Assembly: GCA_963514005.1 (NCBI GenBank)
Contig: OY740803.1
Location: 4,650,001 to 4,714,000 of the forward strand
Direction of reading: 5' to 3'
Source of the DNA: Raja brachyura
Lineage: Eukaryota
DNA: 64,000 nucleotides
Part shown: piece by piece, positions 38,401 through 62,817 of the stretch
Layout: every line of letters starts with the position of its first letter
How positions within the stretch are numbered: position 1 is the stretch's first letter
The notes under the pieces: model-generated
Told to the model about the DNA's origin: nothing
The model's database searches: none
The model's input: the letters and a program-made list of their open reading frames with translations, nothing else
Made by a program: the position numbers and the translations under genes

Positions 38401-39165
38401 CTTACTCCTTATACAATTATGTTGACCAGTGGCCCCTTTCACATCGATCCCTATTACACTTGGCCATACTCTCCTATCCCTTTGTGAGCTTTCTTTCCCG
38501 TTAATTCTGGGGTCATTAACCATCCCTTAACTCTCTTTCCCTTAACCCCACCCCCCTTATTCAATTTAAAACCATCCGTGTAGCAGTGGCAAACCTGCCG
38601 GCCAGAATGCTGGTCCCCCACCTGTTAAGATGCAATCCGTCCCTTTTGTACAGTTCCCCCTTACTCCAAAACAGATCCCAGTGATCTAAGAATCTAAACC
38701 CCTGCCCCCTGCACCAGTTCCTCAGACACACATTCAGGTCCCGTATCTCCCTGTTCCTGCTCTCGCCAGCACGAGGAACTGGAAGCAAACCGGAGATAAC
38801 AACCCTGGAAGTCCTGCTTTTCAGCATTTTTCCGAGCTCTCTGAAGTCCCGCTGCAGAATATTCATCCCCTTCTTTCCAACATCATTTGTGCCAACATGC
38901 ACGACCACTTCTGGCTGTTCATCTTCGCCCTTGAGGATTGTCTGCACTCTGTCCCTGACATCCTGGATCCTGGCACCAGGAAGGCAGCACACCATCCTCG
39001 AATCCCGTCTGTTGCCGCAGAAACCCCTGTCCGTACCTCTCACAATGGAGTCTCCAACTACAATGGCATTGCCGACTTTGGCCTCTTTGGTTTTGGCTCA
39101 ACAGCCCTTTTTATTTTGCAGGCCAGTCCGCCGCTCAGTGAGATACCGTCTTCTGTCCCGGCAGC
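35498..39165 (-). mobile_element. Near-intact CR1 LINE: SGNH-esterase ORF1 C-terminus plus APE-RT ORF2
   Basis: ORF1 AIVVGDS..CLPGA..HVGTND..DGLHL; ORF2 LNARS, ITETW, YRPP, MGDFN, SDHN, DFQKAFD, GVPQGSVLGP, FADD; about two stops and one frameshift; (ttctatgt)n tail. Confidence 0.95.
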
Positions 39166-40896: not shown

Positions 40897-43800
40897 CAAA
40901 TACCGCCATTGGCAGTGGCTTCCACTTCTTGCTATTAAATAAAGTGAAATATTGTTGAGTTTTGTGGAGAATTAATTCTGACATGGATGAATTTGGTCAA
41001 ATACTGTAACATTATGTATTTCTATACGTCACAAAGGCAATCAGGAAAGGTCTCCATTGATATTACTGTCAGCCAACCACAGGGCCTGACACGTGATCCC
41101 TCTGGAGTTAGATAATAATTCTAGGAGAATCTTCACCATGGATATGACAGCGGGATTTAAAATTAAAGATGGACATTCTCTCGTGTTTTAACACAATAAA
41201 TATACAGTACCTGCTACTGGCAAGTAAATGCAGATGCAAAATAAAAGAACAAAGTGTTGGAGTAACAGCGGGCCAGGCGGCATCTCTGGAAGACAGTGAC
41301 GTTTCAGGTCGGGACCCTTCTTCAGACTGGCACCAGTCTGCACTGACGTAGATGTGGATGAGGGGTGTAGTAAATATAATCACGTTATCTATCCAAATGT
41401 AACGTAGATAAAAACAAAGATCAATAACTGAATCTCAGCTCTAAAATCCTCAATATCGACTGGTGATTCCTAAAATGTGATTGCTGATACAGCATTTCTT
41501 CAAAACATGTTTTATGGATATTTTTGTCATTGTGTGGTTATTTTTTAATAGATTTTCAAATTAATTTACCAATTAAGAGTATAATTTCTTATTTTCATGC
41601 TCCTTTAATCAATCAGAAATATAATATGCCAATGTGTAATAAAATGTTTATTTTAAAAAATCAGGTACATTTTTATACATCTATATTTCAATAATAATCT
41701 AAATTTTAAAAATGGAATTTAATTTTCTTTTTATAGTGTGTGTCTTTGTTTACACTGGCACCAGTCTGCTGTAACCTATTTGTATACTGCTACGACTTTC
41801 AATTTTTTTAGAAATAATATGAATGAAGGCAACTCGGGATAATTAAGAGTAAACTTGTATTAATTTAGAAATTAAAGAATGCTTTGTTTATCATTTACAA
41901 TTGCTCCAACTGGAAACTGATCATGTGTACATTCTGTCCATAGTTTAGTTTAGCGATACAGCACAGAAACAGGCCCTTCAGCCCACCGAGTCCGCGCCGA
42001 CCAGCGATCCCCGCACACTAACACTATCCTACACACACTAGGGACAATTTTACATTTACACCAAGCCAATTGGCCTGCAAACCTGCAAACCCACGCAGGT
42101 CAAGGGGAGAACGTACAAACGTTCTTGCGGCTGGCATGTAATATACGGCATCGTGTAACCACTATCGTTAGAATCGGCCAAGGAATCGTGTCTGTTGAAG
42201 TTTGCAAGAGGAGCTGAGAATATATAGAACTATACACGAGAGCTGCAACACACAAACAGAAGCAGTGGAATGGGTCTCATCACCACCACATCAGCACTGG
42301 TTGTTAGCGCTACAGGCTTGATCCACCTCGATGTGAATGGAGTTAGACTTTTACACAACATTCAGGAGAAGGTGGCTTCAACACGGGATTCTCCAATTGC
42401 AAATTCTAAAGACAATGGACGATAGACAATTGGTGCAGGAGTAGGCCATTCCGCCCTTCGAGCCAGCACCGCCATTCAATGTGATCATGGCTGATCATCA
42501 CACCATCCCTGCCTTTTCCCTATATCCCCTGACTCCACTATCTTTAAGAGCCCTATCTAGCTCTCTCTTGAAAGTATCTAGAAAAATGCCCCCTGAGGCA
42601 GAGAATTCCACAGACTGAGTAGATAATGCAGCGCGACTTCCCCATGAGATCCCCATCACTCACAGAAACCAGTCACTGCAAGGCCAGTGTGCATTTCCCA
42701 TCCGTAATTTCTTGTGAGCTGTTGGTGGAACCTTGTTCTTCTGAGGAAGGTGCTCCCACTGTGTTAGTGGGAGACATATCAGGATTTAGGCACAGCAATG
42801 ATGAAGGACGTGGACAATCCTTTCCCGAGTTAGCGTGGTGGAGCCGTGTTCCCAGGCATCTGTTGCCCTTGTCCTTGCCGGTGGGAGAGATCATGGGTTT
42901 GGAGGTGCTGAGGCTGGTGACTGCAATTGTAGATTGGACACGCTGCAATCCTGTACAGTTCTGCTGCTGGAGGTGATTTACTGGAACAGCTAGGCTTTAG
43001 CCGCAGTTAGTTCCGAAGCACAAACCCCATAAGAATCACCCGGTATTTGGATCTTCTCTTCCGCGTCAATCTAATGCTCCCCTTTTCTGCATTGATGCAC
43101 CAAATAAGTATCGTTATTGCCGCGTGTGAATGTGGCATTTCATAGCTTTCAAACAAAAGATATTTAGTAAAAACAGAACCATTCGATTCCAAAATTACAT
43201 AACAAAGTCACCTCCCAAAATGCATCAGACACAAACATGTTTACGCTAATATTTGTAAGATTAGGTTTATTGATTATTTTTGTACATGGTTTCAAAAATT
43301 ACCAAGATATCCCACAGCAAGTTCAAACATTTAATTCAGAACACAAAATTGAAACTAGATTGTAAATGGCGTAATCATATTAAAATCGACCTTCAAATTC
43401 CCCATAAGGTCTAGTCTGGCTACAAGTCCAACATTATTTGAAACAACATCAGCAAATATAACCATATAACCATATAACAATTACAGCACGGAAACAGGCC
43501 TTCTCGGCCCTTCCAGTCCGTGCCGACCATTTATTTTCCCCTAGTCCCATCTACCTGCACTCAGACCATACCCCTCCATTCCCTTCCCGTCCATATACCT
43601 ATCCACTTTACTTTTGAGTATAGGAGTTCCCCCTCATGTTACCCCTAAACTTCTGTCTCCAAATATTGCACTAAAGTGCACCTTAGAATTTAAAAAGTGC
43701 CAAATTTCCAAATTTTAACTGGGGAATCTTGGATTAACTGGGTGAAAGATTGACATGAAGTTTGGTGAATTAGATGAGATATGTAGAGATATTACACAGA

Positions 43801-44489
43801 CATCATCAGCTATTTAACTGTCAACATTATACAACAAATTCCAGAATTTGTGTTCTAGAGATTATATTTGATGAAATCAGGTACAATCATCTACTCAACC
43901 ACATTCCTTGTACGTTGGGTTACTTTACCAGCGGCAGCAATATTTACTGGATTCCCCTTGTATTGAAAACACAAGGAAAGGTATGCAGGGATTCAATCAT
44001 ATTACTGAATTAGAATTATTGTTTTTCTCCACCAGAATCTAAAAGTCATATCCTAATTCTGGGATTAACTATTTCTCAATTTTATTTTTAATTCTGCCCT
44101 GTACCGGCAAGGTTAAATCTGTTATGGTTTCAGTATTTGCCATGACATTATTCCCCTCGAAAACTACACCAATCATAAGAATCCGTTGCAATAACATTCA
44201 TTTTAGAAATCGCACCACAGAGGAAATAGGTTAATAGAAATGATCTTTCTAATAATCAAATTAGTTGTTAATGAAAGGACACCAATGGTAAAGATTTCAA
44301 ATGCAGGGATAAGTCAATGTCAGGATTGAACAGTGGAACTCAACATATACAAGTACACTACCTCTCATCATCAGCAATTACACTATTGAATCACTCCATT
44401 TTTTTGTCAGCTTGAGATAACTTGAAGTCAGTTGTCTAGAAACACATTGCTAATACAGGCTAAAATCCTACAACATAAAATAGATAGCC

Positions 44490-45010
44490 ACAAACTCAAC
44501 GGGACAGGCAGCATCTCTGGAGAGAAGGAATGGGTGACGTTTCAGTACGAGACTCTTCTTCAGACTGGTTTGGGATAAGGGAAACGAGTGATATAGACGG
44601 TGATGTGGAGAGATAAAGAACAATGAATGAAAGATATGCAACAAAGTAACGATGATAAAGGAAACAGGCCATTGTTAGCTGAGTAGCTGGTGCGACTTGG
44701 GTGGGGGAGGGACAGAGAGAGAGGGAACGCCGGGGTTACTTGAAGTGAGAGGAATCAATATTCAAACCACTGGGCTGTAAGCTGCTCAAGCAAAATATGA
44801 GATGCTGTTCCTCCAAGTTGTGTTTAGCCTCACGCTGGCAATGGAAGAGGCTGAAGACAGAAAGGTCTGTGTGGGAATGAGAAGGAGAATTAATGTTTAG
44901 CAACCTGGAGATCAGGTGGGCTGAGCGAAGGTGTTCAGCGAAACGATCGCCCAGTCTACGTTTGGTCTCGTCGATGTATAAGAGGCCACATCATGAACGA
45001 TGGATACAGT
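44490..45010 (-). mobile_element. Penelope-like element 3' end (GIY-YIG remnant plus terminal repeat)
   Basis: Minus strand reads YCIHRS*CGLLYIDETKRRLGDRFAEHLRS and LEEQHLIFCL..LQPSGLNID, followed by the hammerhead-bearing repeat; a shorter copy lies at 46289-46565. Confidence 0.88.
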
Positions 45011-45518
45011 AATAGATAACTATTTTTTAATTCTGCTGTTATCATAAACAGTTTGTGGGTTCTACCATTTACTGTCATTGAAAACACAAACTTTTCAGTT
45101 TATAATTAATAGATTTTTATACCTGAAATAGGAACAATGCAATCAGTACTGGCAATTCACAGTGGGACATAAAACATAGACATTATACGAGAAAATGTCG
45201 TAGCTGGCCTTGCAACCACATAGTTACATTCTCATCACAAAGCCAACTTGACAACATATTTAATCCCATGGTAACTTATTTTCAACAATTTTAATGATTA
45301 TTTACTTCCTTTCCAATTCAATGAATAGATAGCCAGCGTCACCACAAACATCACATTTCATATGTTGCACCTTCATTGTGTTAGAACTTCTTTAGTCGCC
45401 AATGTTCAAGACTTTGATCCAATACTTATTTGGGCACCAGCGGCTGAACAGACTGTTCATTCTGTAAAAACTGAGATAAATGGACATTACCAAATATGTA
45501 TTTTCTCTAAACAATCTA

Positions 45519-45608
45519 TTAATGTGATTGGAACATGAAAACATGGAGATAGAGCAAGGGGCAGAGTGGTAGAAACGGAATCCAAACCACAAACTTTCCA
45601 GGGAAACC
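45519..45608 (-). CDS. Candidate final coding exon of the SLC5A gene
   Basis: cctgttgtttgtgcag| acceptor; phase 0 gives GFPGKFVVWIPFLPLCPLLYLHVFMFQSH*; no homology support. Confidence 0.35.
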   Translation of the reverse strand, partial: GFPGKFVVWIPFLPLCPLLYLHVFMFQSH

Positions 45609-45980
45609 CTGCACAAACAACAGGAAATATTCTTAAAATAGCAAATACAATTATTCAGGATTCGAGGTGCGACATTTTCATAAAGGGGTGAATCAGAATT
45701 CTTCAACTTCAGAAATTGACATTAAACACCCTTACAACATAATGACACATCCATTTATTCCCTAATCACTGCTTACACACAATCACAGCTATTTACACGG
45801 GGTAAAAGATTGCAACCTTCACGTGGTCCGCCCTGTTTCGACTAATGTAATCAACTCGATGTGCACAAAACGGAAGATTAAATAGAACAAGTTGTCGTGC
45901 AACTTTAGACTGTGCACGCCACGCGAAAGAAGAAGAAGAAGAAGCTATCTGCATGTGCCACAACAGTTATGTGATTTTAC

Positions 45981-46049
45981 CTGAGTATTAGAAGCATGGT
46001 GACCTGTAGTGAAGATTTTTTCAGGAGCGGTTTCCAACAGTTCTATGGC
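45981..46049 (-). CDS. SLC5A-family gene, C-terminal tail exon
   Basis: Long T-tract cacag| acceptor and cag|gtaaaa donor; AIELLETAPEKIFTTGHHASNTQ; phase 0 matches. It could instead read through to a stop at ~45945. Confidence 0.65.
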
Positions 46050-47796
46050 CTGTGAAAAAAAAACAATTAGTATCACTCAAACTTATTTTTATCCCTTCTA
46101 TGACATTCAGAACTATGAACAGTTATGAATGGAGGTTTGGAAAGCTGAATAATTAATATTTAGAGTTTACATACAGTTGGTGTTAAAAATGGAAAATAAT
46201 TTAAAAAAAATTGGAGGATAAAGAATGTTTGCAAAGCAGACAAATACAAGTTTCAATTGCGTTTAGGGAGTATTCTAAATAAAACGAGAGGTAGACAAAA
46301 GTGCTGGAGAAACTCAGCGGGTGCAGCAGCACCAGAGAAAAGGAATACGCGACGTTTTGGGTCGAGACCCTTCTTCAGACTGATGTCGGGGGGGAGCAGG
46401 AAAAAGAAAGGAAGAGGCGGAGACAGTGGGCTGTGGGAGAGCTGGGGAGGGGAGGGGAAGGAGGGAGAAAGCAAAGACTACATGAAATTGGAGAAGTCAA
46501 TGTTCATACCGCTGGGATGTCGACTGCCCAAGCGGAATATGAGGTGCTGCTCCTCCAATTTACGCTTGTCCGCACAACTTACCCGCTTTTTTAAGTAGCA
46601 GTCAAATACGGGACAGGGGCGGTCCCGTACGGGACACACCAATTTTGTCCAATAGGCGGTATGTCCCGGCTAATACGGGACAGTTGGCAACCCTAGTGGC
46701 ATTCAGATCTTGTGAAAGGTCCTGAATAATACAACAATCACCTCAAATTACATGGATTACAAATTTAAATTTAAATGCTGAATTTGTATTAAGGATCTTG
46801 TGACTCAAAGTCAAGGGTGCTGAAAGTCAAGGTGCTCAAAGCCAAGGGGACTACCTGAAATCTAAGATACTAAGCTAAAGTTCATTTCAGAGAACGTGAC
46901 AAAATTGAGTCCGTTTGGTTAATTAATGTCAATGGGTTTGCTCTTTTCTGTTGTGTGAGCTTTAGCTTCTTCTTCTTTCATGTGGCGTGCACAGCCTAAA
47001 GTTGTTGGACAACTTGTTCTATTTGATCTGCTGTTTGTGCACGTTGAGTTGATTACATTAGTCGAAACGGGGCGGACCACGTGAAGGGTTGCAATCTTCC
47101 ACCCCGTATCTTTAGCTTTGACATCTGGATTCCCCAAGGAACACATTGCTGTTCACCAAAGTTTCACAATTTAATAACATTGAGATTTACAGTGTGGAAA
47201 CAGGCCCTTCAGCCCAACTTGCTCATACCGGCCAACAATGTCCCATCTACCGAATCCCACCTGCCTGCATTTGGTCCATATCTCTCCAAACGTGTCCTAG
47301 CCATGTACGTTTCTTAAACGTTGCGATGGTCCCTTCCTCACTTCCTCATCTGGCAGCCCATTCCATACACCCACCACCCTTTGTGTGAATGTCACGTGTC
47401 CATTCCTTCCACAAATGCTGTCTGAACCACTGAGTTCCTCCAGCGTTTTAGGTTTTACACAAGACTCCAGTATCTGCAGTTCTTGTGTAGGAAGGAACTG
47501 CAGATGCTGGTTTAAACTGAACATAGACACAAAATGCTGGAGTAACTCAGCGGGACAGGCAGCATCTCTGAAGAAGGGTCTTGACCCGAAACATCACCCA
47601 TTCCTTATATCCAGAGATGCTGCCTGTTACTCCAGCATTTAATAATTTGGCCATTTAAACATATTAATATTATTAAGACACATGTGTCTATCTGCAGTTC
47701 TTTGTGTCTTAATAATATTAATATGTTTAAATTGCCAATTTATTACATTCAAATCTAATGATTAATGAAAGCTTGATTGAATGATAATGATCTTAC

Positions 47797-47897
47797 TGTC
47801 TCAGGCAATGGTGCAGCCGGCTTCTTTCTGAACAGAATCTCGTGAATGGTGTGATATAGAGGAGCAATGAGTTCTTGATCCACATTTTTGCTGCCTC
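47797..47897 (-). CDS. SLC5A-family gene exon (SLC5A8 exon 14 equivalent)
   Basis: GGSKNVDQELIAPLYHTIHEILFRKKPAAPLPET; cag| acceptor, |gtaaga donor; phases consistent. Confidence 0.85.
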
Positions 47898-48569
47898 CTG
47901 AGGTGGGGACAACAGGGTTAGTTATGACGGCAGCAACAATGAACCGACCGCATTCAGACTGAAGTTTCTAACTTTTGGGTAAAATGCTATTTTGAAATTG
48001 TCCAACAGTGAAGATTAAGCTTTTATGGAGAACAGAAACATTATAAATCAGTAGAGGAGACTAGCATTCACAGTGCCGTATTAACATGCTTGAAGAAATT
48101 TATACAGGAAGAAATTTAAACTATGGAAATTTCTCAGAAGGTATCATGTTGCTAATGTGTTTAAGAAGGAACTGCAGATGCTGGAAAAATCAAAGGTAGA
48201 CAAAAATGCTGGAGAAACTCAGCGGGTGAGACAGCATCTATGGAGCAAAGGGATAGGTGACGTTTCGGGTCGAAACCCTTTGACGTCGCTTATTTCCTTC
48301 GCTCCATAGATGCTGCCTCACCCGCTGAGTTTCTCCAGCATTTTTGTCTACCTTCAGTATACATATTGATCTATATTATACAGTTCATCTACATTTAACT
48401 GGTAAGCAACTAATGTTGTGTATCACACCCATCGGAATGGAAGTAAGCGACATCATTGATTTTGCATTGCTTCCTAGGATTCTTCACCGCACTAATCCAC
48501 ATCATCCCATTAATCCAGTCTCCTAGAGAAAAAAATGTGAAAACTACAAATTGTTTAATAAAAAGGGGT

Positions 48570-48869
48570 GGCACGGTGGTGCAGCGATAGAGTTGCTGCT
48601 TCACAAAATCAGAGACCCCGGTTCGATCCTGACTACGGGCGCTGTCTGTACAGAGTTTGAATGTCCTCCCCTTGACCTGCGTGGGTTTTCTCCGGGTTCT
48701 CCAGTTTCCTCCCACACTCCAAAGACGTACAAGTTTGCCGGTTAATTGGCCTTGGCATAAATGTAAATTATCCACAGTGTGTGTAGGATAGTGTCAGTTG
48801 GATCGATGGTCAGCACGGACTCGGTGGGCCGAAGGGCCTGTTTCACCGCTGTATCTCTGAACTAAACTA
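48570..48869 (+). mobile_element. tRNA-derived V-SINE (HE1-like)
   Basis: A box tggtgcagcg, B box ggttcgatcc, V-domain tgcgtgggttttctccggg..tttcctcccacac, CR1-like 3' end; partial copies at 41942-42120, 50514-50675, 56250-56312 and 59082-59188. Confidence 0.85.
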
Positions 48870-49027
48870 CAAAAAAAGATTTAATGTGGAGCACCAGAGA
48901 TATCTCATATGATATGAGATAAGAGATCCTCTCGGAGTGGAATGAATAATGCGATCTTTTGATCAAGGTCAATGCCAACTAACAAGACTCCAGCTTCTAA
49001 ACTATAATATAATTTCAGTTTACTTAC

Positions 49028-49131
49028 CGGTAACCATACTAACCAGCAAACCGAATATAATTGTAAGCAGACAGCCAACAGGGGTATAATATCCATAGGA
49101 TAGTGAGCAGACGTTTTCTATCACGCTCGCT
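49028..49131 (-). CDS. SLC5A-family gene exon (last TM helix)
   Basis: 104 bp; ASVIENVCSLSYGYYTPVGCLLTIIFGLLVSMVTG matches the SLC5A8/12 YSLSYLY..VG..G..VSL.TG pattern. Confidence 0.92.
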
Positions 49132-50172
49132 CTAAAAAAGATTCAAGATATTTATGATAACAGAGATTTTATATGAGATAGATCATCTGTGAATCTTTGA
49201 AATCAGGCTCTTTAGGTAGGAACTGGAGTCATTATCACAATATTACATTTAACTGTTCCTCATGATTGCACTAAAACAGGAGAAATGCTCGCAGTTGTAG
49301 ATCGCCGCTCAATCTGTAACACCATAGGAGTAGAATTAGGCCACTCAGCCCATCATGTCTACACTGCCTTTCGATCATGGCTGATCTATCTCTCCCTCCT
49401 AACCACATCCTCCTGCCTTCTCCCCATAACCCCTGACACCCGTACTAATCAAGGATCTATCTATCTCTGCCTTAAAAATATCCACTGACTTGGCCTCCAC
49501 ATCCGTCAAACAGTGATCGTAGGTTAATCCATTCATTCCAGAGATCATTCTCCTAAACCTCCTCTGGACCCTCTGGAGCCAGCACATCCTTCCTCAGATG
49601 TGGTGCCCAAAACTACTCACAATATTCCAAATGCGGTCTGACCAGCGCCTTATAGAGCTTCAACATTACATCCCTGTTTTTGTATACAAGCTCTTGTGAA
49701 ATAAATGCTAGCAGTGAGTTCAAGAAAGAACTGCAGATAATGGACAAATCGAAGGTAGACAAAAATGGTGGTGAAACTCAGTGGGTGAAGCAGTATCACT
49801 GGAGCGAAGGAAAGGGTGACACTTCGGGTCGAGACCCAAAACGTCACTTATTCCTTCGCTCCATAGATGCTGCCTCACCCGTTGGGTTTCTCCAGCATTT
49901 TTGTCTACCTAGCATTGAGTTTGCTTTCTTTTGGTCAAGAACCTTCTTCAGACTTGAAACGTCACCCATTCCTTCTCTCCACAGATGCTGCCTCACCCGC
50001 TGAGTTACTCCAGCATTTAGTGTCTAGTTTCGATTTAAACCAGCATCTGCAGTTCTTTCTTACACATCTGCAGTTTCTCCCGGTGCTGCACCTCCCGTTG
50101 TTGTAGATCTATACGTGCAGTGAACAAACAAAATAGAAAATAAAATGATTCCGTGTTAACTGACTGACTTAC

Positions 50173-50369
50173 GTTTTATCCGGTGTCACCATGGTGGTGA
50201 AGAAGGATGATCCATTCATGGGGCTGGAGGTGGTGGTATTAGACATGTAACAGCCTGCTATTGATGTTTGGAGTTTCCTTGTGAACTTTGCAGCAGGTGG
50301 ATACATTTGAGAACAGATTCCCAAAAAAAGTGAACAGCCACAAGAGATAAACATACCCACAAATGCACC
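50173..50369 (-). CDS. SLC5A-family gene exon
   Basis: GAFVGMFISCGCSLFLGICSQMYPP..GC..NTT..; canonical splice sites; phase 0 to 2. Confidence 0.92.
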
Positions 50370-50940
50370 CTGTGAGAATCAAAGTGAGGACAATATTACT
50401 TCAGGGTGTAATGGAGAAGTACAGCTCCACAAATCATTCTGTCTTTCCAGTGGTGAGCGTCAGTTAACAATGGTCTAACCGTTGCAAATAGAATAGCTGC
50501 AGGAAAAGCGTGCGGCGCTGTGGTGCAGCGGTAGAGTTGCTGCCTTACAGCCCTTGCAGCGCCAGAGACCCGGGTTCGATCCCGACTACGGGTGCTGCCT
50601 GTACAAAGTTTGTACTTTCTCCCCGTCGTGACCTGCGTGAGTTTTCTCCGAGATCTTCGGTTTCCTCCCACATTCCTGAATATTTGCTTATTAATGCAAA
50701 CGAATGGCTTCGTGAAGGTAGCATTTTTACATCTTTGAATTAAACATTAACGTTGTAATGAGAATTGCCTTACTTCCAGTTTGCTACTTCTCAAGCTGGT
50801 GATCTGCTTTTTCACGTTGACTTAGCGTGGCCATTAACTTAACGCTGCACCAATAATTTTGTTTTAACACAAGTTTGAGATCTTGAAATGTTTGGAAATG
50901 TAAAACTAGTCCCAAATCTATTTTTAATACAAGGTCTTAC

Positions 50941-51027
50941 CGTCCCATTACTCTTTGGAAACAATGCTGCCAGTGTGAAAACGCCCAGTACAGGTCCAAG
51001 AATCAAGCCATCAACACTTCGAGCTAG
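50941..51027 (-). CDS. SLC5A-family gene exon (87 bp)
   Basis: LARSVDGLILGPVLGVFTLAALFPKSNGT (GP.LG.F.L...P..N motif); ctaatcag| acceptor, |gtaaga donor. Confidence 0.92.
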
Positions 51028-51391
51028 CTGATTAGAAAAATGACAGGAACATTCTTATGCCAACAGGGAGAACAATATTGATGCCAAGAAAATGTGTTAA
51101 AAGTTAAATTACAACTTTAAAAAAAAAGTTTAAGAAAGAACTGCAGATGCTGGAATAATCGAAGATAGACAAAAATGCTGGCGAAACTCAGCGGATGAGG
51201 CAGCATCTATGGAGCGAAGGAATAGGTGACTTCACTCCATAGACTTCTTCTGAAAAAGGGTCTCGACCCAAAACATCACCTATTCCTTCGCTCCATAGAT
51301 GCTGCCTCATCCGCTGAGTTTCTCCAGCATTTTTGTCCACTTTAACTTAATTTTCAAATTAATTTTTCATTTACCTGCATGACATTTTCTT

Positions 51392-54300
51392 TTTTTTTGT
51401 TTTTTGTTTTTTTTTTGTTGAATATTTTTTATTAGAAGTATAAGTACAGGTGTAAGTACAAGTATAAGTGCATATAAAAACAACGTTCTTGATAAAGAGA
51501 TAGGTAATAATTACCATGTTTTCTTATATATACTTCTAAACATTTTATTGTAGTTTTTTTAAGTGAAAAGTAGGAAAGTGTGAAAAATGATTAACATAAA
51601 AATAGTTGTAAAATAACCAGAAGAGAAAAGTAAATAAAATAACAGTGGTATATTATACAAACAGTATTTATATAATAATATATCCGTGATCAATAATGTA
51701 TTATTCTTCGTCTAATCCTTCGTTCAGGTCTCGATCAGGTCCACAAACCGAGTCATATTGATCCCTTAAGATATTCAAGGAATGGAGACCAAATCAGATT
51801 AAATTGGTCTAACTTGCCTAAAAGTGCAAGTCTTATTCTTTCCAAGTGTAAAGTCTCAGCCATTCCTGAAATCCACAATTTGATTGTAGGGGGTATGGGG
51901 CCTTTCCAAAATTGTAAAATTAATTTTTTACCAATTATTAAACTATAATCTATGAAAGTTCTTTGTGCTGTCGTGAGTAATTGATCCCTTTCTAATATTC
52001 CCAATATTATTAATTTTGAGTCTGGAACTAGATTCTTATTTACAACATTCGAGATTACCTTAAATATTTCCAACCAAAAATTGGTAATTTTTATACAAGT
52101 TGTAAAAGAATGTGTTAAATTAGCTTCTGGGTATTGGCATTTGTCACATATAGGAGATACATTAGAAAACATTCTATGTAATTTAGATTTTGAAAAATGC
52201 AATCTAAGTAAAACTTTGAATTGTATCAGAGAGTGTCTAGAATTTAATGAACAATTATGTATATATCGTAAACTTTCATCCCAGATATCGGATTCAATTG
52301 TTTCACCTATTTAATTTTCCCATAGTTGTCTGTACTTTTCCGTATTGGGTATATCATTTTCTAATAAAATATTATAAATGTATGATATTAATTTTTCCGT
52401 GTTTGGGTGTTTATTTAAGCATTCATCTAGAATTCCCGTCTTTCTCTTTTTATATTCCTGTGCAGTTGTTTTAATGTAGTCAGTTATTTGTAGATATCTG
52501 AAGTAATGTTTAGAGTGTAGTCCATATATTTCCTGTATTTCTTTAAATGAAAGATACAGATTGTCCCTGTAAAGGTCACTGATCTTATTAATTCCTTGAT
52601 TTTTCCATTGTAAGAATCCTAAATTTTCCAGGGATGGTTTAAAACTTACATTATTAACAATGGGAAGAACTAATGGGATATCTTCTAGTTTTAACGTTCT
52701 TTTTAACTGTCTCCAAATATTAATTCCACTATTAATTATTGGGTTTTCTCGATAAATTTTCTTAAATATTTTAATTTTAGAAAATAATATGGAACTGATT
52801 TCATACGGTAAGCAGTCTTCCTTTTCCATAAGTAACCAGTTTGGATTTTCATCCAGTTCAACCCACCAAAAGTTCATATTCTTAATATTAACTGACCAGT
52901 AATAATATATAAAATTAGGTAATGTTAAACCTCCATTAATTTTCGATTTACATAAATATTTTTTATTTATTCTATGGCTTTTATAGTCCCAAACAAAATG
53001 AGTGACTATAGAGTCAACCTTTTAAAAAAAATTCTTAAAAAGATATATCGGGATCATTTGAAATAAATATAATAATTGTGGAAGAAAAATCATTTTTATC
53101 GCATTAATTCTACCTATCATTGAGATAGGTAGAGTTCTCCAATATAGAATATTCTTAGATAATTTATTTAGTATAGGTAAAAAATTATATTTAAATAAAG
53201 AATCATATTTTTTTGTAACGCGAATTCCTAAATACTTAATCTGTTCATTAACAATCTTAAAAGGAAATTGTTTTAATGTAGTTAAATTATCTTGTGTTAA
53301 TGGCATGTTCACTTTTATTCCAATTGATTCTATATCCAGAAAACGAGCCAAATTGAGTTATTAAATTTAATAAATTAGGTATGCTAATTTCAGGTTTTTA
53401 AATATATAATAATACGTCATCTGCATATAGAGAAATTTTATTTCTTGTTTCGTTAGTTTCATATCCAAAAATTTCGGGGTGTAATCTTACCCGAATGGCT
53501 AATGGTTCTATAGCCAACGCAAATAATAATGGTGATAGGGGACAACCTTGTCTGCATCCTCGAAATAAATTAAATTTGGTGGATATCATTTGGTTAGTTA
53601 AGATTTTAGCAGTTGGATTAGTATATAGTAATTTGATCCATTTTATAAACTTGTCTCCCAAATTTAACTTTTCCATAACCGCAAACAAATATGGCCATTC
53701 AACTTGGTCAAAGGCTTTCTCTGCATCTAACGATATTATTAGTAAGTCTTTATTATAACTCCTTTTCGAGTATATAATATTAAACAATCGTCTCAAGTTA
53801 TATGATGAGTATCGTTTAGGTATAAATCCTGTTTGATCCGGGTGTATTATTTTATTAATCACTACACTTAATCTTTTAGCTAATATCTTAGTTAATATCT
53901 TTTGATCCGTATTTAAGAGAGCAATAGCTCCATATGATCCCGGATCATCTAGGTCTTTATCCATTTTTGGTATGAGTGTTATAATGGATTCGTTTAGTGT
54001 TTCTGGTAAACTCTGTTGCGCATATATATATTCGTAAAGTGTCTTCAAATAAGGTGTTATCAGATCCTTGTATGATTTATAAAATTCCGAACCAATACCA
54101 TCTGGCCCAGGGGTTTTCCCTTTTTTTAATGATATAATAGAATCCTCAATTTCTTTAACTGTTATTTCAGCATTTAATAGTTTTGTATCATCTACATCCA
54201 GTCCTATTAGATTACAGTCGTTTAAAAATGTATTAATTCCTATCTGATTTTCAGTCATTTTGGATGAGTATAAATCTTTATAATATTGTAAAAATCTCTC

Positions 54301-55430
54301 ATTAATATCGTTATTTTGTGTTAAGAATTCACCATTTTCTGATTTAATCCGATGTATTATTTTTTCTCCCTGTATTTTTCGTAATTGGCGAGCCAGTAAT
54401 TTTTGTGGTTTGTCCCCAAATTCAAATTGTATTTGTTTTGTGTATTGATATAATTTAACCACTTGGTCAGTATATATCTTATTTAATTTATATTTTAATG
54501 CAGTAATTTTATTATGTGTTATCATTGTAGGGTTGAGAGCATTTTCTATATCTAATTGTTTTATCTCCATTTCCAGAATATTTTGTTCCTTCCGCTTTTC
54601 TTTGTTGTAAAATGCTTGTGAAGATATCATGATTCCACGAGTAAAAGCCTTAAAAGTTTCCCATAGTAGGGATGGAGATATTTCTGGTTTATCGTTTATT
54701 TCAAAAAAAGTCTTAATCTGCTTTATAATATATTCATTAGTTAATTTATCCTTCAAAATTTGTGGATTAAGGCTCCATTGTCCTCGCATTTTCATGTTAT
54801 CATTAAATTTAATATTAAATGTTAATGGAGCGTGATCTGAAATAATGATACTGTGGTATTTAGAGTTATAGATGTATGGAATAAGCTTTATATCTACAAG
54901 GAAATAGTCAATTCTAGAATATGTTTTATGTACCGAGGAGTAAAATGAATAATCTCGTCCTGTTGGGTGTTCCATTCTCCAAACATCTCTAACTTTACTA
55001 GTATCAATGTATGCATTTATTAAATCACTGGAGTGTGATTTAAATTTCCTCTGTCCTGACGATCTATCTAAATAAGGATCTAAAGTACAATTTAAATCTC
55101 CTCCAATTATTAAATTGTGTTGTGCATGATCAGGAATTGTATTAAATATTTTCTTTAAAAAAATTGGGCTGTCAAAATTTGGGCCATATATATTGGCTAA
55201 TATTACTTTTTGGGCATATAATTCTCCCGTTACAATAATACATCTTCCATCTTTATCAATTATAGTTGATGTATGCTTAAATAAAGTACCTTTACGTATC
55301 AGTATTGCTACACCTCTAGATTTATGAGTAAAAGAGGAATGATATATTTTGTCAATCCATTTAGCCTTTAATCTATGCTCGGCATCTTGTTTTAGATGTG
55401 TTTCTTGAAGAAACGCAACATCAATTTTAA
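51392..55430 (-). mobile_element. 5'-truncated L1 LINE (ORF2 only) with a 178-bp target-site duplication
   Basis: LQETH, GGDLN, SRIDY, SDHAP, DAEKAFD, RQGCPLSP, YADD and a C-terminal Cys motif; poly-A at 51392; flanks 51214-51391 and 55431-55608 are near-identical direct repeats. Confidence 0.95.
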
Positions 55431-55591
55431 GCGAAGGAATAGATGACTTCACTCCATAGACTTCTGAAGAAGAAGGGTCTCGACCCAAAACATCACCTAT
55501 TCCTTCGCTCCATAGATACTGCCTCATCCGCTGAGTTTCTCCAGCATTTTTGTACACTTTAACTTAATTTTCAACTTAATTTTTCATTTAC

Positions 55592-55662
55592 CTGCATGAC
55601 ATTTTCTTGAAAGAGGGATGTTAATGCTGCCAGTCCCATTGTTGCAATTCCAAATGTCATGG
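55592..55662 (-). CDS. SLC5A-family gene exon (71 bp)
   Basis: (A)MTFGIATMGLAALTSLFQENVMQ; tttag| acceptor, cag|gtaaat donor. Confidence 0.92.
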
Positions 55663-55828
55663 CTAAACGAAACAAAACAAAATTGGAAACATAGAAAATA
55701 GGTGCTGGAGAAGGCCATTCAGCCCTTAGAGCCAGCACTGCTATTCAATATGATCATGGCTGATCATCCAGAATCAGTACCCTGTTCCTGCTTTCTCTTC
55801 ATATCCCTTCATTCTGTTAGCCCTAAGA

Positions 55829-56045
55829 CAAAGTTTCCCAACGTTTTTCGTCCCGTTAACCCATGGAAACTTTAGTAGCACGTAACAATAAGATTTTACT
55901 TATTTATGAACAACTAATGATGAACAGATACCGGTTTACCAGAACCAAACACGGTCAGTGAATGAGAAAAAATATGTACAAATCCAGAATCAACAAATTT
56001 ACCCCCTGGGTAGGCAAAATGTACCCCCTGGGTTGGGAACGCTTG
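55829..56045. mobile_element. hAT-type MITE inserted in a CR1 fragment
   Basis: TIR caaagtttcccaac / gttgggaacgcttg; approximate 8-bp TSD ccctaaga / ccctagaa. Confidence 0.7.
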
Positions 56046-56914
56046 CCCTAGAAGCTATATCCAACTCACACTTGAAAACATCTATTGGTAGGAACATACA
56101 GTGTACTGATATTCGGAACACTTTATTTTACATTTCCCACGAGTCAATTTGCTCCTTCCATATGTCCAGACCTCCTTCCCTAACCCTCTCCGTCTCCCTT
56201 CCTCCGAGAATGACCCACCCGGTTGAAGCCGGTAGTTACCACCACAATACGGTGGCGCAGCGGTAGAGTTGCTGCTCTACAGCGCTTGCAGAGCCAGAGA
56301 CCCGGGTTCCATCCTCTCAATAATACAATACAATACACATTTATTGTCATTTAAACCTCAAAAGGAGTTCAAACGAAATTTGGTGTCTGCAGTCACACAA
56401 CAAGAAAAAAACCAAGTCACACAAACATCACAATTTACACAAATATCCATCACAGTGAATCCCCTCCTCACTGTGATGGAAGGCAAAGTCTTGTCTCTCC
56501 CCTGTGTTCCATTCTTCTCCCGATGTTAAAACCCCCGGTGGGCGATGGCAAGCCCCGTGCTGGGCAATGCAATGCCCCGCTCCGGGCCTTAATGCTGAAG
56601 CCCCCGGCCATTTAGATGGCTTTGAACGTTCTTCCTGTGGCCTGTGTGGGTTTTCTCCAAGAACTTCAGTTTCTTCCTACACTCCAGCGACATTCAGGTT
56701 TGTAGGTTAATTGGCTTGTTAGAAATGTTAAAAAAATTGTCCCCAATGTAGGATCATGGTAACGTGTGGGGAACGTTGGTAGACATTGGGGAATTGGGGA
56801 AAATGGAAGAAAAGTGACTTACATCATTCAACAGACTAGGGTGCTATAGGATCGCAGGGACCACATTATCCAACAGTCCAAGTTGGAAAAGCAATGCACC
56901 CACCCAGCTCGAGG

Positions 56915-58053
56915 ATGTGGCCAAGACGCGATGGTCTGAGCTACAGGGAGACGTTCAGTAGGTTGGGTCTCTATTCCTTGGAGCGCAGGAGGATGAGGGG
57001 TGATCTTACCGAGGTGTATAAAATCATGAGAGTCATAGATCGGGTAGACGCACAGAGTCTCTTGCCCAGAGTAGGGGAATCGAGGACCAGAGGACGTAGG
57101 TTCAAGGTGAAGAGAAAAACATTTAATAGGAATCTGACGGGTAACTTTTTCACACAAAGGGTGGAGGGTGTATGCAACAAGCTGCCAGAGGAGGTAGTTG
57201 AGGCAGGGACTCAGGAACTATCCCGAGGTTTAAGAATCAGTTAGACAGGTACAGGGATAGGACAGGTTTGTAGGGATATAGGCCAAACACAGGCATGTGG
57301 GACTAGTATAGCTGGGACATGTTGGCCGGTGTGGGCAAGTTGGGCCGAAGGGCCTGTTTCTTCACCGTATGAGTCTATGACTCTCGATGATCTCCTGACT
57401 TTGAGAACTTTAGATAAAAATACACCTTGGTCAAAAATCAAAGAATGATTGTAGAATCCACCATTTTATTTCTTGCTTTATATTTATCTATTTTTATCTA
57501 TAAACTAGGTTTGCTCATCATAAAAAAAAATGGTGTTTTATCCTAACAATCTCTAACATTCAATCTTGTTTAAAAAGATTGATAGAGTTTGTTCTTCACA
57601 CGTTTGTGGATCTAAAACCGTCCAATTTCACCCCGATATCATCAAACTGTGCGTTCTTTAATATCATTGAAACATATATTGAAACATATGAGATTATTAA
57701 GGGTTTGGACACGCTGGAGGCAGGAAACATGTTCCCGATGTTGGGGGAGTCCAGAACCAGGGGCCACAGTTTAAGAATAAGGGGTAAGCCATTTAGAACG
57801 GAGATGAGGAAACACTTTTTCACACAGAGGGTTGTGAGTCTGTGGAATTCTCTGCCTCAGAGGGCGGTGGAGGCCGGTTCTCTGGAAACTTTCAAGAGAG
57901 AGCTAGATAGGGCTCTTGAAGATAGCAGAGTCAGGGGATATGCGGAAAAGGCAGGAACGGGGTACTGATTGGAGATGATCAGCCATGATCACAGTGAATG
58001 GCGGTGCTGGCTTGAAGGGCCATATGGCCTACTCCTGCACCTATTGTCTATTG
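56915..58053 (+). mobile_element. Two CR1 3' fragments (56915-57380 and 57664-58053)
   Basis: LGLYSLERRRMRGDL..FFTQRV peptides and CR1 3' UTRs. Confidence 0.88.
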
Positions 58054-58147
58054 TATATATGTCACAGCCAATAATCTCGTCACTCTTTCTGTACTTTACT
58101 TTCTGTCCTGTGGGAGTTTCAGAAGCAGATGATATATAAAAGGAAAC

Positions 58148-58269
58148 CTAGAAGCTTTGAGATCCGCGTTCTCTTGCGTTCGGGAAAGTGCGCCCAAGAT
58201 TTGCAGTTTGGCTTTATAATATCTTCCACAAAGACGGCAGCAATAGAGTTGATGCCTGAAGAGATTGTG
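58148..58269 (-). CDS. SLC5A-family gene exon (Na2-site helix)
   Basis: (S)TISSGINSIAAVFVEDIIKP..RISKLL, the SSS-family ST.SS..N..AAV..ED.IKP motif. Confidence 0.94.
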
Positions 58270-58393
58270 CTGTGGACAAGAAAAATAAAGCAATGTTGAA
58301 ATAAGATACAGTATGAACATATGTAAGAACATACAACATACAGTAAGATGCATAAACATGTCAATATTGATCAGACTGAACACTAGTTCTGGT

Positions 58394-58421
58394 CTGAAGA
58401 AGGGTCTAGACCCGAAACGTC
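58394..58421 (+). ncRNA. Minimal hammerhead ribozyme motif (Penelope repeat)
   Basis: ggt-CTGAAGA-A-gggtc-ta-gaccc-GAAAC-GTC-acc; 3-bp stem I (ggt/acc). Confidence 0.65.
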
Positions 58422-59522
58422 ACCTATTTCCTTCGCTCCATAGATGATGCCTCGCCTGCTGAATTTCTCCGGCATTTTTATCTACCATCGATTTTCCGGC
58501 ATCTGCAGTTCTTTCTTAAACAACTAGTTCTGGTCACATCTTTTGTCCCCAATCACTTTTTATCTATCATTAAAATAAATATAACGTTTTGTCCTCTCCA
58601 CATTGGCAGTATACTTTGGGAAGAATTAGCACATTAAAAAAAGTGGAATTTTACATCTGTCCATTTCACACGTTAGCTCAACTCAATTCAGAATTGCCTC
58701 GGCTGCTTGGAAATAAAGTAAATGGACTGCTTGATTCTCCATGATCACATAGGAAGGATGTACCTACTGATAGTGGAGGAAAGAACTGCTGATGCTGGTT
58801 GAAACCAAAGATAGAAGGGTCTCGACCTGAAACGTCGCCCATTCCTTCTCCGCAGAGATGCTGCCTGTCCCGCTGAGTTACTCCAGCATTTTGTTTCTAC
58901 CTAATGATAGTTCTCAGAGACTCTGGTACTAGATTGCAGAATGTTAAGGAAAAGACTGGTTGCTACTTGCTCCCTCATTTCAGGAGTAAATATATTATGC
59001 AGCTAACATTTCAGAAGCTATAATCATATCTACTAACATACAGCTCCCCATTCATTGTTATTACCATCAATTTACACTAATGGCACGGTGGTGCAGCGGT
59101 AGAGTTGCTGCCTTACAGCACTTGCAACCTGGAGATCCAGGTTCCATCCCGACTACAGGTGCTGTCTGTACGGAGTTTGTACGTTCTACCTTGATTCCTT
59201 TAGCCCTAAGAGCTAATCTAACTCTATCTTGAAAACATCCAGTGAATTGGGCTCCACTGTTTTCTGTGGCGGAGAATTCCACAGATTCACAACTCGCTGG
59301 GTGAAAACATTTTCCTCATCTCCGTCCTAAATGTCCTACCCCTTATTCTTAATCTGTGACCCCTGGTTCTGGACTCCCCCAACATCGGGAACATTTTTTC
59401 CTGCATCTAGCCTGGCTAATCCCTTAAGAATTTTACACGTTTCTATAAGATTCCCTCTCATCCTTTTAAATTCCAGTGAATACAAGCCCAGTCGACCCAG
59501 TGTATAATATAACATGACCTAC

Positions 59523-59611
59523 CTCAGTGTGCCACTAAATGCACTTGCAATAAAAAGCCCCGAAGCTCCAGGCACATGAGACAAGATCTCCAAAACTAGT
59601 AACGGTATCAT
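59523..59611 (-). CDS. SLC5A-family gene exon (89 bp)
   Basis: MIPLLVLEILSHVPGASGLFIASAFSGTL(S), matching the PG..GLF.A...SGTLS signature. Confidence 0.94.
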
Positions 59612-59778
59612 CTTGCGAAAGATTTAAAAATAAAAAATAAGTTATTGGGCAACGATTCGCAATATCTGCTATACCATATTAAATAGTTCTTACAATTTGT
59701 CATGGTTCATAAAATGAATTAAGAGAAATGAATACAGTATCAAGTATGATCACTTTAAAAATGAGCTGAGGCTCAATA

Positions 59779-60270
59779 AGGTGCTGGTCTGGCCCATTCG
59801 GAGTACAGTGAGCAAATGTGGGCTCCATATCTGAGGAAGGATGTGCTGGCTCCGGAGAGGGTCCAGAGGAGGTTTACAAGAATGATTCCAGGAATGAGTG
59901 GGTTAGCATATGATGAGTGTTTGACAGCACGGGGCCTGTACTCACTGGAGTTTAGAAGGTTGAGGGGGGACCTCATTGAAACTTACAGAATAGTGAAAGG
60001 CCTGGAGAGAGTGGATGTGGAGAGGATGTTTCCACTGGTGGGAGTGTCTAGGTCTAGAGGTCACAGCCTCAGAATTAAAGGACGCGCTTTTAAAAAAGGA
60101 GGTGAGGAGGAACTCCTTTAGTCAGACGGCGGTGAATCTGTGGAACTCATTGCCACACAGGGCTGTGGAGGCCAAGTCAGCGGATATTTTTAAGGCAGAG
60201 ATAGACAAGTTCTTGATTAGGACGGGAGTCAAGGGTTATGGGGAGAAGGCGGGAAAATGGGATTGGGTGG
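59779..60270 (+). mobile_element. CR1 LINE 3' fragment
   Basis: [39 protein letters not shown]. Confidence 0.88.
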
Positions 60271-60838
60271 CAGAGATCAGCGGAGTGGACTCGATGCTGC
60301 CTGCCTTTTTGAGGCAGCGACTATGATAGATCCCCTCGATGGTAGGGAGGTCAGAGCCGATGATGGACTGGGCAGTGTTTATTACTTTTTATAGTATTTT
60401 CCACTTCTGGGCGCTCAAGTTGCCGAACCAAGCCAGGATGCAACCGGTCAGCAAGCTCTCTACTGTACACCTGTAGAAGTTAGAGAGAGTCCTCCTTGAC
60501 AGACCGACTCTCCGTAATCTTCTCAGGAAGTAGAGGCGCTGATGTGCTTTCTTTATAATTGCATCAGTGTTCTCGGACCAGGAGACCAAAGAGCTGGTGC
60601 CTTGTTGAGGAAATCACATCAACTGCCTGATACTATTCCCAGCTAAATCCCACAACCCCTCAGTCAGAGTATCGTTCTTCAGTGTAAAAGTCAAGAGAGT
60701 CGAGAGTCAAGTCAAGAGTGGTTTATTGTCGTGTGTCCCAGATAGAACGATGATATTCTTACTTGTAGCAGCACAACAGAATGTGTAAACATAGTATGCT
60801 GTGAACAATAGAACAAACAAGAGAGAAAAAAAAGTTCA

Positions 60839-60879
<41 letters not shown>

Positions 60880-61311
60880 CACGTACACATATATATAGAT
60901 CATACACATATATATAGATCATACATACATATGTACACACGCACACACGCACATATCTGTACATACAAAAAAAAACAATAATAGTGAAACACACAAAAAA
61001 ACACTCATGGTAATAGCGTGAACCTTACATTTTCTACACCAGCCATCCCACTGTGTTATACCGTCAAGTATTATTTAGAAAAAGCGGTGACCTATAGACC
61101 ATGCGTGAGGAACTGGGTTGAGATTGGCCAAACCCATGTATCGTAAGACACAGAGACACAGGTGAGGGATGTGCCTTTCATCCGCCTGCACTAATCTCAT
61201 CTCAAGACCAGAGGCTCAGGGGACCAGAGGGGGCTGTGCTAACCTGCAAGGCTGTCCAGATTCTCAAAGACTCCCAAGAAGCTTTGACTTGTTAAACGTG
61301 CATTCATGTAC

Positions 61312-61441
61312 CTGGTTGGTGTTGGTGATTCTGTTTGACTCCATTGGATCACAGTTTTCATAAACAGCATACATGACCAGGCCACACATACACGCAGCAA
61401 CTACCATCACAAGCATCCCGACCCAGTTCAAGAATATCGCC
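61312..61441 (-). CDS. SLC5A5/6/8/12-family sodium/solute symporter exon (most 5' exon found; the gene continues beyond it)
   Basis: 130 bp; AIFLNWVGMLVMVVAACMCGLVMYAVYENCDPMESNRITNTNQ with the GL..Y..Y..CDP motif; all downstream exon phases are consistent. Confidence 0.94.
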
Positions 61442-62636: not shown

Positions 62637-62817
62637 NNNNNNNNNNNNNNNNNNNNNNNNNNNNNNNNNNNNNNNNNNNNNNNNNNNNNNNNNNNNNNNN
62701 NNNNNNNNNNNNNNNNNNNNNNNNNNNNNNNNNNNNNNNNNNNNNNNNNNNNNNNNNNNNNNNNNNNNNNNNNNNNNNNNNNNNNNNNNNNNNNNNNNNN
62801 NNNNNNNNNNNNNNNNN
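62637..62817. other. Assembly gap (181 N) within a MITE-like element
   Basis: Run of N; a gtgggacaggcct TIR-like end lies at ~62886-62898. Confidence 0.95.

Follow-up and report, generated by a model that had tools for sequence, protein, structure and literature searches.

A probable over-long target-site duplication around a 5′-truncated L1 at a splice donor of an SLC5A8-like gene in Raja brachyura

The locus described here raises the question of how an L1 element whose insertion point appears to lie inside a coding exon came to reside in an intron, between two copies of the end of that exon and its splice donor. It was found in a 64,000-nt window (the whole stretch of DNA that was analysed) of Raja brachyura contig OY740803.1. 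It is considered probable that the two copies are an over-long target-site duplication (TSD) made by the L1 insertion itself, and that the upstream copy keeps the host transporter gene working.

The host is an SLC5A8-like (sodium-coupled monocarboxylate transporter 1-like) gene, whose last ten coding exons occupy 45426–61441 on the minus strand. Its open frame comprises 334 aa, of which 299 are identical to Leucoraja erinacea protein P0001; this comparison concerns the part that follows approximately the first 280 codons, which lie outside the window. All ten visible exons (10/10) have AG/GT boundaries and are free of internal stops. They are colinear with those of relatives, with no gap relative to P0001, and the L1 sits in a pre-existing intron. 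An identical protein model for the gene was absent both from 14 matches (58 candidates) and from 5 matches (10 candidates). The exon of interest, of 71 nt (55592–55662, minus strand), ends at the boundary CAG/GTAAAT, as the first-pass annotation had described, and its donor GTAAAT (55586–55591, minus strand) completes the open frame. The next coding exon, of 87 nt, lies at 50941–51027 on the same strand.

The direct repeats reported in that annotation were reproduced by an ungapped alignment of the flanks. In the left copy (51214–51391), downstream on the gene strand, the exon end and donor are decoys, and those of the right copy (55431–55608), upstream on the gene strand, complete the reading frame. 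Each is 178 nt long, with eight mismatches between them: four single substitutions (51226, 51301, 51337 and 51358) and a cluster of four at 51249–51255. The match extends one base leftward, giving 179 nt at 95.5% identity. The match is not due to chance: the whole window contains only three pairs of direct repeats of 100 nt or more with an identity of 90% or above. False duplication of haplotypes around the L1 during assembly, which a repeat-rich region might invite, is highly improbable: the copies disagree at 8 positions out of 178, several of these differences being polarisable as later mutations, both junctions bear biological marks (a poly-A that meets an endonuclease-type site, and microhomology), and the only run of N in the window (62637–62817) leaves the 7 kb around the locus free of gaps.

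The claim of a 178-bp repeat holds as a local duplication, with an addition that the annotation lacked, namely that about 124 of the 178 nt (51214–51337) belong to a high-copy palindromic repeat. This palindrome (51168–51337) has arms at 51168–51229 and 51276–51337, paired at 61 of 62 positions, and the left end of the duplication falls within its left arm. The family numbers about 20 copies in the window, which might suggest that a common repeat had inserted twice, independently. However, other family members align over at most 88 nt, and a unique spacer is present in both copies, as are 54 nt of unique intron/exon sequence (53/54 identical), found nowhere else in the window; the spacer and these 3′-most 54 nt have no other window match longer than 17 nt. 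Because this unique sequence is duplicated as well, the pair represents a true local duplication, and two independent insertions were rejected as barely credible.

Between the repeats, and exactly bracketed by them as the annotation had proposed, lies a 4039-bp insert (51392–55430, minus strand) in the same sense as the gene and without a 5′ inversion. It carries EN and RT Pfam domains (PF03372, then PF00078), over which human L1 ORF2p scores 407 bits, compared with at most 79 bits for R2, and named fish LINE-1 proteins are 42–43% identical to its ORF2. On this homology, the insert is assigned to the L1 clade of retrotransposons. It begins at about residue 40 of ORF2, the 5′ UTR and ORF1 having been removed by 5′ truncation, and its homology reaches the C-terminus. 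The ORF2 remnant, from about residue 40 to the natural stop (51753–55431, minus strand), contains three nonsense codons (53400, 53024 and 52313) and one frameshift (approximately 53312).

The junctions carry the marks of target-primed reverse transcription (TPRT). An interrupted poly-A tail, A10-C-A6-C-A7 (51392–51416, minus strand), meets the edge of the left repeat, in agreement with the earlier claim that the poly-A adjoins a repeat copy. It begins exactly at a pyrimidine/purine step 15–17 nt within the exon, a range that arises from two T's common to the nick site and the poly-A. The earlier placement of the first nick inside the exon thus stands, while the site is better read as TTCTT/GA (55604–55610, plus strand; its position is derived from TPRT polarity) than as ct/tg, and the proposed figure of about 17 duplicated exon nucleotides becomes 15–17. 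TTCTT/GA is a degenerate match to the TTTT/AA motif, as far as that motif is given in PMC11702581 and PMC4398972. For another L1 in the window, the cut fell at a comparable CT/GA step and the TSD measures 11 bp, and no long flanking repeat was found around the L1 at 29707–35014.

At the opposite end, protein relatives of the element have Leu at the junction in 102 of 115 scored matches. In 36 of 115 the residue just before it is Ser, which is also what the codon derived from the target encodes. The Leu codon of these relatives makes a microhomology of at least 2 nt (55430–55431) likely at the 5′ junction, and the TSD would accordingly measure about 175–179 bp. This lies outside the canonical L1 range of 5–30 bp and, with otherwise normal TPRT marks, places the locus among the long-TSD L1 insertions (above 100 bp). 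The repeat flanks the insert exactly, and the geometry, with poly-A at the nick and the duplicated block at the 5′ end of the L1, supports an origin by TPRT.

In the proposed course of events, ORF2p would have nicked the plus strand inside the exon, and cDNA would have been primed from the poly-A. Reverse transcription would have halted about 40 codons into ORF2, and a microhomology of 2–5 nt would have let the cDNA end join the opposite strand at a distance of about 178 nt, at a distant nick or by strand invasion. Fill-in would then have duplicated the stretch of about 178 nt. With the spliceosome choosing the upstream donor, an intron of 347 nt would have become one of 4564 nt holding the L1.

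The ages of the two components fit such a single event. The decay of the L1 (three stops in 1222 codons) gives d of 0.013–0.018 (95% limits 0.003–0.053), and the repeats have diverged by 0.014 per copy (0.005–0.033), values that agree, within wide intervals spanning more than tenfold. It is unlikely, instead, that two steps were involved, in which an L1 with a short TSD broke the exon and the null was reverted later, when a microhomology-mediated exchange or template switch that involved an empty allele or sister chromatid dropped the 5′ part of the L1 and imported the 178-bp block. That course would yield an identical final sequence, and it suits a junction with microhomology within a near-perfect 62-bp palindrome. 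Yet it requires two rare events and a disruptive allele that lasts between them, the ages agree, long TSDs in one step are already documented, and the asymmetry of polarised changes between the copies (3 versus 1) is not significant (p=0.63). A distant second nick, cDNA strand invasion and later exchange with an empty allele lead to the same outcome and are indistinguishable here. Very unlikely is a tandem duplication of 178 bp that pre-existed and was hit by the L1 at its exact junction, without a TSD of its own. The junction of such a tandem would likewise be T-rich on its left side, but the L1 would have to hit a single precise base and leave a TSD of zero length, and the idea is unnecessary for explaining the microhomology and the matching ages.

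The palindrome suggested further possibilities. Near-perfect palindromes are structures known as break-prone. The duplication junction falls in the middle of the stem, at about 16 bp from its loop and about 46 bp from its base, which gives no positional support to a hairpin-guided second nick. Pairing of the arm in the upstream copy with the inverted arm, looping out the L1, is energetically possible (−116 kcal/mol, compared with −121 kcal/mol for the local hairpin), and the local hairpin should form before any such pairing. Penelope-like elements are linked with hammerheads in the material of PMC6155905 that bears on them. In the whole window, Rfam gave no match at the gathering score, and the 17 weak matches in 44000–60000, mostly to microRNA-hairpin models and none to a hammerhead, are all below threshold. 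A minimal hammerhead core motif occurs six times in the window and in neither TSD copy. A hammerhead origin of the junction, by ribozyme cleavage of the host pre-mRNA and RNA ligation to L1 RNA, was rejected: the core is degenerate in both copies and on the opposite strand to the pre-mRNA, and some 14 nt separate the junction from the mirrored cut position (51228).

Returning to the over-long TSD, the open frame of the ten visible exons and the lack of rate acceleration make rescue of the SLC5A8-like gene by the upstream donor plausible. An ordinary TSD of at most 20 bp would cost the exon its donor, and the allele therefore likely survived through the length of the duplication; by inference, a TSD of about 23–25 bp would suffice, and 178 bp far exceeds the need. 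Since a gene dead since the insertion would be expected to have gathered just about 0.4 stops and 0.3 frameshifts, the intact frame is weak evidence of a live gene. Five relative-rate tests gave p values of 0.19–1.0, with no rate acceleration. At otherwise invariant columns, the window protein has 2 private changes in 144, Leucoraja 4 in 146 and Rhinoraja 9 in 151, and of the seven sequences compared, that of the window shows the smallest number of private changes where columns are conserved. Two changes against 4.4 expected correspond to P=0.18 without background, and P reaches 0.05–0.01 only under an assumed 2–4 background changes.

The downstream copy also retains a donor, and the decoy 5′ splice site noted earlier at about 51374 is present as GTAAAT (51369–51374, minus strand), identical to the upstream one. 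An L1 poly(A) signal, AATAAA (51428–51433, minus strand), lies 54 nt before it. Upstream of the decoy, the acceptor at 51487 is the most pyrimidine-rich of 189 L1 AG sites (0.78, compared with 0.71–0.82 for real acceptors), which delimits a candidate cryptic exon of 113 nt from the L1 3′ UTR to the decoy donor (51375–51487, minus strand). Judged by its reading frame, it may act as a frameshifting poison exon, with inclusion predicted to bring a stop at the start of the following exon; were the decoy used with this acceptor, a frameshifted transcript would result. Such signals could imply the same origin but an incomplete rescue, in which sense L1 poly(A) signals (12 sense AATAAA hexamers) and the decoy-closed exon leave a weak or null allele. 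This is unlikely, given ten open exons, no acceleration, the fewest private changes of the seven sequences, and a chance of about 22% of finding a good AG in that range under uniform placement. The decoy donor is probably silent for the most part. Its use for recursive splicing was rejected for want of a pyrimidine tract ahead of its AG. A product joining the exon in frame to L1 ORF2 was rejected as well: an open frame does run across the right repeat, but the exon's own frame stops a few codons into the intron.

Long-TSD L1 insertions in cultured cells were reportedly described by Gilbert (2002, 2005) and Symer (2002), as cited by Servant et al. According to the relevant passages of the latter work, the usual TSD range is 5–30 bp, and TSDs above 100 bp are a documented outcome that makes up at most 10% of events in HeLa cells and the majority in NER-deficient cells; a distant second nick is proposed, and such TSDs may duplicate exons or be lost by recombination (PMC5223499). 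In the corresponding parts of a second source, long TSDs are associated with 5′-truncated inserts, natural TSDs peak at 14–16 bp, and the genome survey of natural insertions considered only TSDs of 5–30 bp (PMC2912911). This peak implies a low prior for the long-TSD class. In open-licence PMC and bioRxiv texts, no earlier report of a long natural TSD rebuilding a donor was found; supplementary TSD tables may hold long cases of natural origin.

The locus is well supported as a natural instance of a known mechanism. Its TSD is about ten times the usual length, and what is known of TSDs above 100 bp comes mainly from cell lines with engineered L1s. An aged, inherited case of 178 bp indicates that the long-TSD outcome occurs in a non-mammalian germline and is able to persist, and it shows how a hit in an exon can be turned, by a simple route, into an intronic insertion, leaving a spare splice donor. 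As one locus with a known mechanism, it leaves the understanding of retrotransposition unchanged. A broader view, that long TSDs constitute, among natural L1 insertions in vertebrates, a class both hidden and selected, and that the spare donor is functional here (through U1 masking and a poison exon), is decidedly doubtful. If the former were true, surveys capping TSDs near 30 bp would miss the class, and its survivors would be those rebuilding splice signals. If the latter were true, U1 at the spare donor would mask the poly(A) signal that the L1 carries 54 nt upstream, and the donor would close the 113-nt poison exon, tuning transporter expression.

Several known systems resemble this locus in part. 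The L1s of cultured cells, as presented in PMC5223499, share a TSD above 100 bp around a poly-A-tailed element, but they are engineered and human, whereas the present one is a natural, inherited, 1–2% decayed fish-type L1 of a cartilaginous fish. Insertions in hippocampal neurons (PMC4398972) are natural and have over-long TSDs above 40 bp, one of 92 bp; unlike the present case, they are somatic, human and have shorter TSDs, with no splice-site effect stated in the passages concerned. The zebrafish ZfL2-2 element in DT40 cells offers a fish LINE with a long TSD, of 1228 bp, in 1 of 25 wild-type events, although it belongs to the L2 clade and a cell-culture assay (the parts of PMC2666801 describing these events).

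Other parallels concern splicing. In the canine merle SINE of PMEL, as described in the pertinent sections of PMC7349775, a retro-insertion at an exon boundary likewise places a TSD over a splice site with competing signals. That TSD has 15 bp, on the acceptor side of an antisense SINE with a visible phenotype, whereas here a TSD about twelve times longer lies on the donor side of a sense L1. Introner elements, in the account drawn from PMC11282704, are tolerated in exons via a TSD-derived splice site, as is proposed here, but they give rise to an additional intron, and most of them are DNA transposons whose TSDs are short, while in this gene an existing intron was enlarged and none was gained. 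In the HIV-1 5′ LTR, the poly(A) signal is followed 195 nt downstream by the donor, compared with 54 nt here, and U1-dependent occlusion of the poly(A) site has been shown experimentally (PMC3694450); the skate locus matches that system in layout alone.

The studied L1, an L1-clade insert at 51392-55430 on the minus strand and in the same sense as its host gene, is bracketed by a left copy (51214-51391) and a right copy (55431-55608) of one block, the right copy being the upstream one with respect to the minus-strand gene. The first-pass annotation had described these as 178-bp direct repeats with about 8 mismatches, and alignment of both blocks confirms the coordinates, with 178 nt in each copy and 8 ungapped differences; with one further identical base at the left, the match grows to 179 nt at 95.5%. 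The differences comprise four isolated substitutions and four clustered in a short GAA/TTC-rich stretch, the cluster being suggestive of slippage together with a single substitution. A repeat family with approximately 20 copies in the window accounts for about 124 nt of the block, so a chance match needed to be ruled out. Further copies of this family align with the block over no more than 88 nt, and the block spacer and terminal 54 nt, where the intron starts and the exon ends (53/54 identity), are confined to these two copies in the window. The 178-nt duplication is real and local. The sole N run of the window, at 62637-62817, is an assembly gap of 181 N within the intron that precedes the first of the visible exons.

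The bracketed insert is indeed a 5'-truncated L1, as had been proposed. It encodes an endonuclease and a reverse transcriptase. The match of its product to human L1 ORF2p reaches 407 bits, that to R2 proteins no more than 79 bits, and identity to named fish LINE-1 proteins is 42-43%. The ORF2, carrying three nonsense codons and one frameshift, extends from about residue 40 to the C-terminus and is followed by a 3' UTR, an AATAAA (51428-51433, minus) and an interrupted A-tail (51392-51416, minus). Three stops in 1222 codons correspond to 1.3-1.8% decay (limits 0.3-5.3%), and five substitutions between the block copies to 1.4% per copy (0.5-3.3%). The estimated ages of the L1 and of the duplication agree with a single event, and two close events would fit as well.

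The host gene encodes an SLC5A8-like transporter, whose best match of 14 is a Leucoraja erinacea protein, pointing to a skate as the likely source of the window. Ten exons from 61441 to 45426, all with AG/GT ends, give an uninterrupted frame of 334 codons when joined; roughly 280 codons at the start of the gene lie beyond the window. Identity is 299/334 to Leucoraja and 279/334 to Rhinoraja. The duplicated block takes in the final 15-17 nt of exon 55662-55592 (71 nt) together with 161 nt of intron, which upholds the overlap previously placed at about 17 nt and makes its extent 15-17 nt. The interrupted intron now measures 4564 nt, or 347 nt once the L1 and one copy are taken out.

Five relative-rate tests revealed no acceleration of the host gene (p 0.19-1.0). 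At columns invariant in six other proteins, the window protein has 2 changes in 144, the fewest of the seven sequences; neutral decay since insertion would predict 4.4 (P=0.18), and the observed 2 have P of 0.05-0.01 if a background of 2-4 further changes is assumed. The pattern favours, only moderately, a gene still functional since the insertion. One of these two private changes is a Thr, Lys in six relatives, at the codon that ends the exon downstream of the L1 (50941-50943, minus). Among the protein models compared (14 matches from 58 candidates, and 5 from 10), none is identical to the host gene, and splicing across the L1 is therefore a prediction from sequence.

The A-tail begins at a TTCTT/GA step on the plus strand. 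The first nick would keep its earlier position inside the exon, and reads better as TTCTT/GA than as the ct/tg step named before. The L1 opens with a Leu codon that shares bases with the repeat edge at the 5' junction. This Leu is present in 102 of the 115 relatives with the scored motif (from 120 listed matches), and Ser directly precedes it in 36/115, the target-derived codon also being Ser. From this pattern in relatives we infer a microhomology of 2 to about 5 nt; passages of two papers report 2 bp or more for the junctions of truncated 5' ends (PMC11702581; PMC4245944).

The most economical account is target-primed reverse transcription (TPRT) with an early stop, distant joining of the cDNA end and fill-in. 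TPRT would begin from the nick within the exon, cDNA synthesis would end early, and the cDNA end would join the other strand about 178 nt away, by a nick or by strand invasion (the sequence allows either), with fill-in afterwards. The upstream copy would give the exon back its end and its donor (GTAAAT, 55586-55591), so that the L1 would now be intronic. A target-site duplication (TSD) of about 23-25 bp would probably suffice for such a rescue, and an ordinary one of up to 20 bp would be too short. The main rival, a null insertion later reverted by exchange with an empty allele, yields the identical final sequence but requires two events. A long TSD with rescue in one step is considered the probable course, and the original account of an exonic hit turned intronic is supported in outline, its splicing step as a prediction.

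The left end of the duplication falls within a palindrome with 61/62 bases paired, and the junction sits mid-stem, which gives a hairpin-guided cut no positional support. Palindromic pairs of one repeat family occur at 5290-5402 (arms 51/55 identical), 48156-48354 (66/72), 49715-49908 (63/78) and 51168-51337 (61/62). Scanning with a core motif found hammerhead-like cores at six places in the window, which we take to suggest a Penelope-like origin of the family. Rfam gave no hammerhead match, and a hammerhead-based route to the junction was rejected. In the pre-mRNA, the upstream-copy arm 55493-55554 could pair with the inverted arm 51168-51229 beyond the L1, looping out the L1 and the spare donor (-116 vs -121 kcal/mol for the local hairpin).

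This spare donor, the second GTAAAT at 51369-51374 in the left copy, had been flagged as a decoy and is present with exactly the sequence of the upstream donor. On the L1 sense strand, the pyrimidine fraction reaches at least 0.72 at 5 of 189 AG sites, the highest being an AAG at 51487 (0.78), 113 nt before the decoy; real acceptors range over 0.71-0.82, and one is likewise an AAG. By chance, a site of this kind would fall within exon range about 22% of the time, so the 113-nt segment is a candidate cryptic exon, not a signal. Its inclusion would shift the frame, with a stop codon reached as soon as the following exon begins. The L1 AATAAA stands 54 nt upstream of the decoy. With such a layout in HIV-1, polyadenylation is suppressed by the downstream donor (PMC3694450), and the decoy might act likewise.

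Two further L1s are found in the window, both apparently full-length and decayed. That at ~17365-23012 (minus) sits inside another repeat and has an 11-bp TSD with 1 mismatch and a CT/GA nick. For the other, at ~29707-35014 (plus), a long flanking repeat was looked for and is absent, with no definite TSD; it has internal deletions, a nested repeat at ~33684-34300 and about 70% identity to the studied L1 across part of ORF2. One of the three L1s in the window has a long TSD. Direct repeats of 157 bp at 33684-33840 and 43459-43615 lie 9.8 kb from each other and share 99.4% identity; one copy is nested in an L1, and the pair probably reflects a young repeat family or recent conversion. A LINE at ~35594-39097 (minus) has a GDSL-esterase frame and, after it, endonuclease and reverse transcriptase frames, an arrangement presumably of CR1/L2 type. 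The 1378-codon open frame at 25269-29405 (plus), with no Pfam match and with SAMD9 structures matched at E 3e-122, is predicted to be an intact SAMD9-like large exon; an early Met is absent, so an upstream exon is probably needed.

According to passages of PMC5223499, L1 TSDs usually span 5-30 bp, those above 100 bp account for no more than 10% of HeLa events and for a majority in NER-deficient cells, and long TSDs are able to duplicate exons. Excerpts of other papers describe somatic insertions in neurons with TSDs above 40 bp, including a 92-bp one (PMC4398972), a 1228-bp TSD in 1 of 25 zebrafish L2 events (PMC2666801), and a peak at 14-16 bp for natural human and chimpanzee insertions, surveyed over 5-30 bp only (PMC2912911). 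In the open-licence papers searched, no inherited long-TSD L1 rebuilding a donor was found. TSDs covering or supplying a splice site are described for the merle SINE (PMC7349775) and for introners (PMC11282704). Beside these systems, the present locus appears to be a natural, aged and non-mammalian case of an L1 outcome that is known but rare, and a consequence for splicing is predicted.
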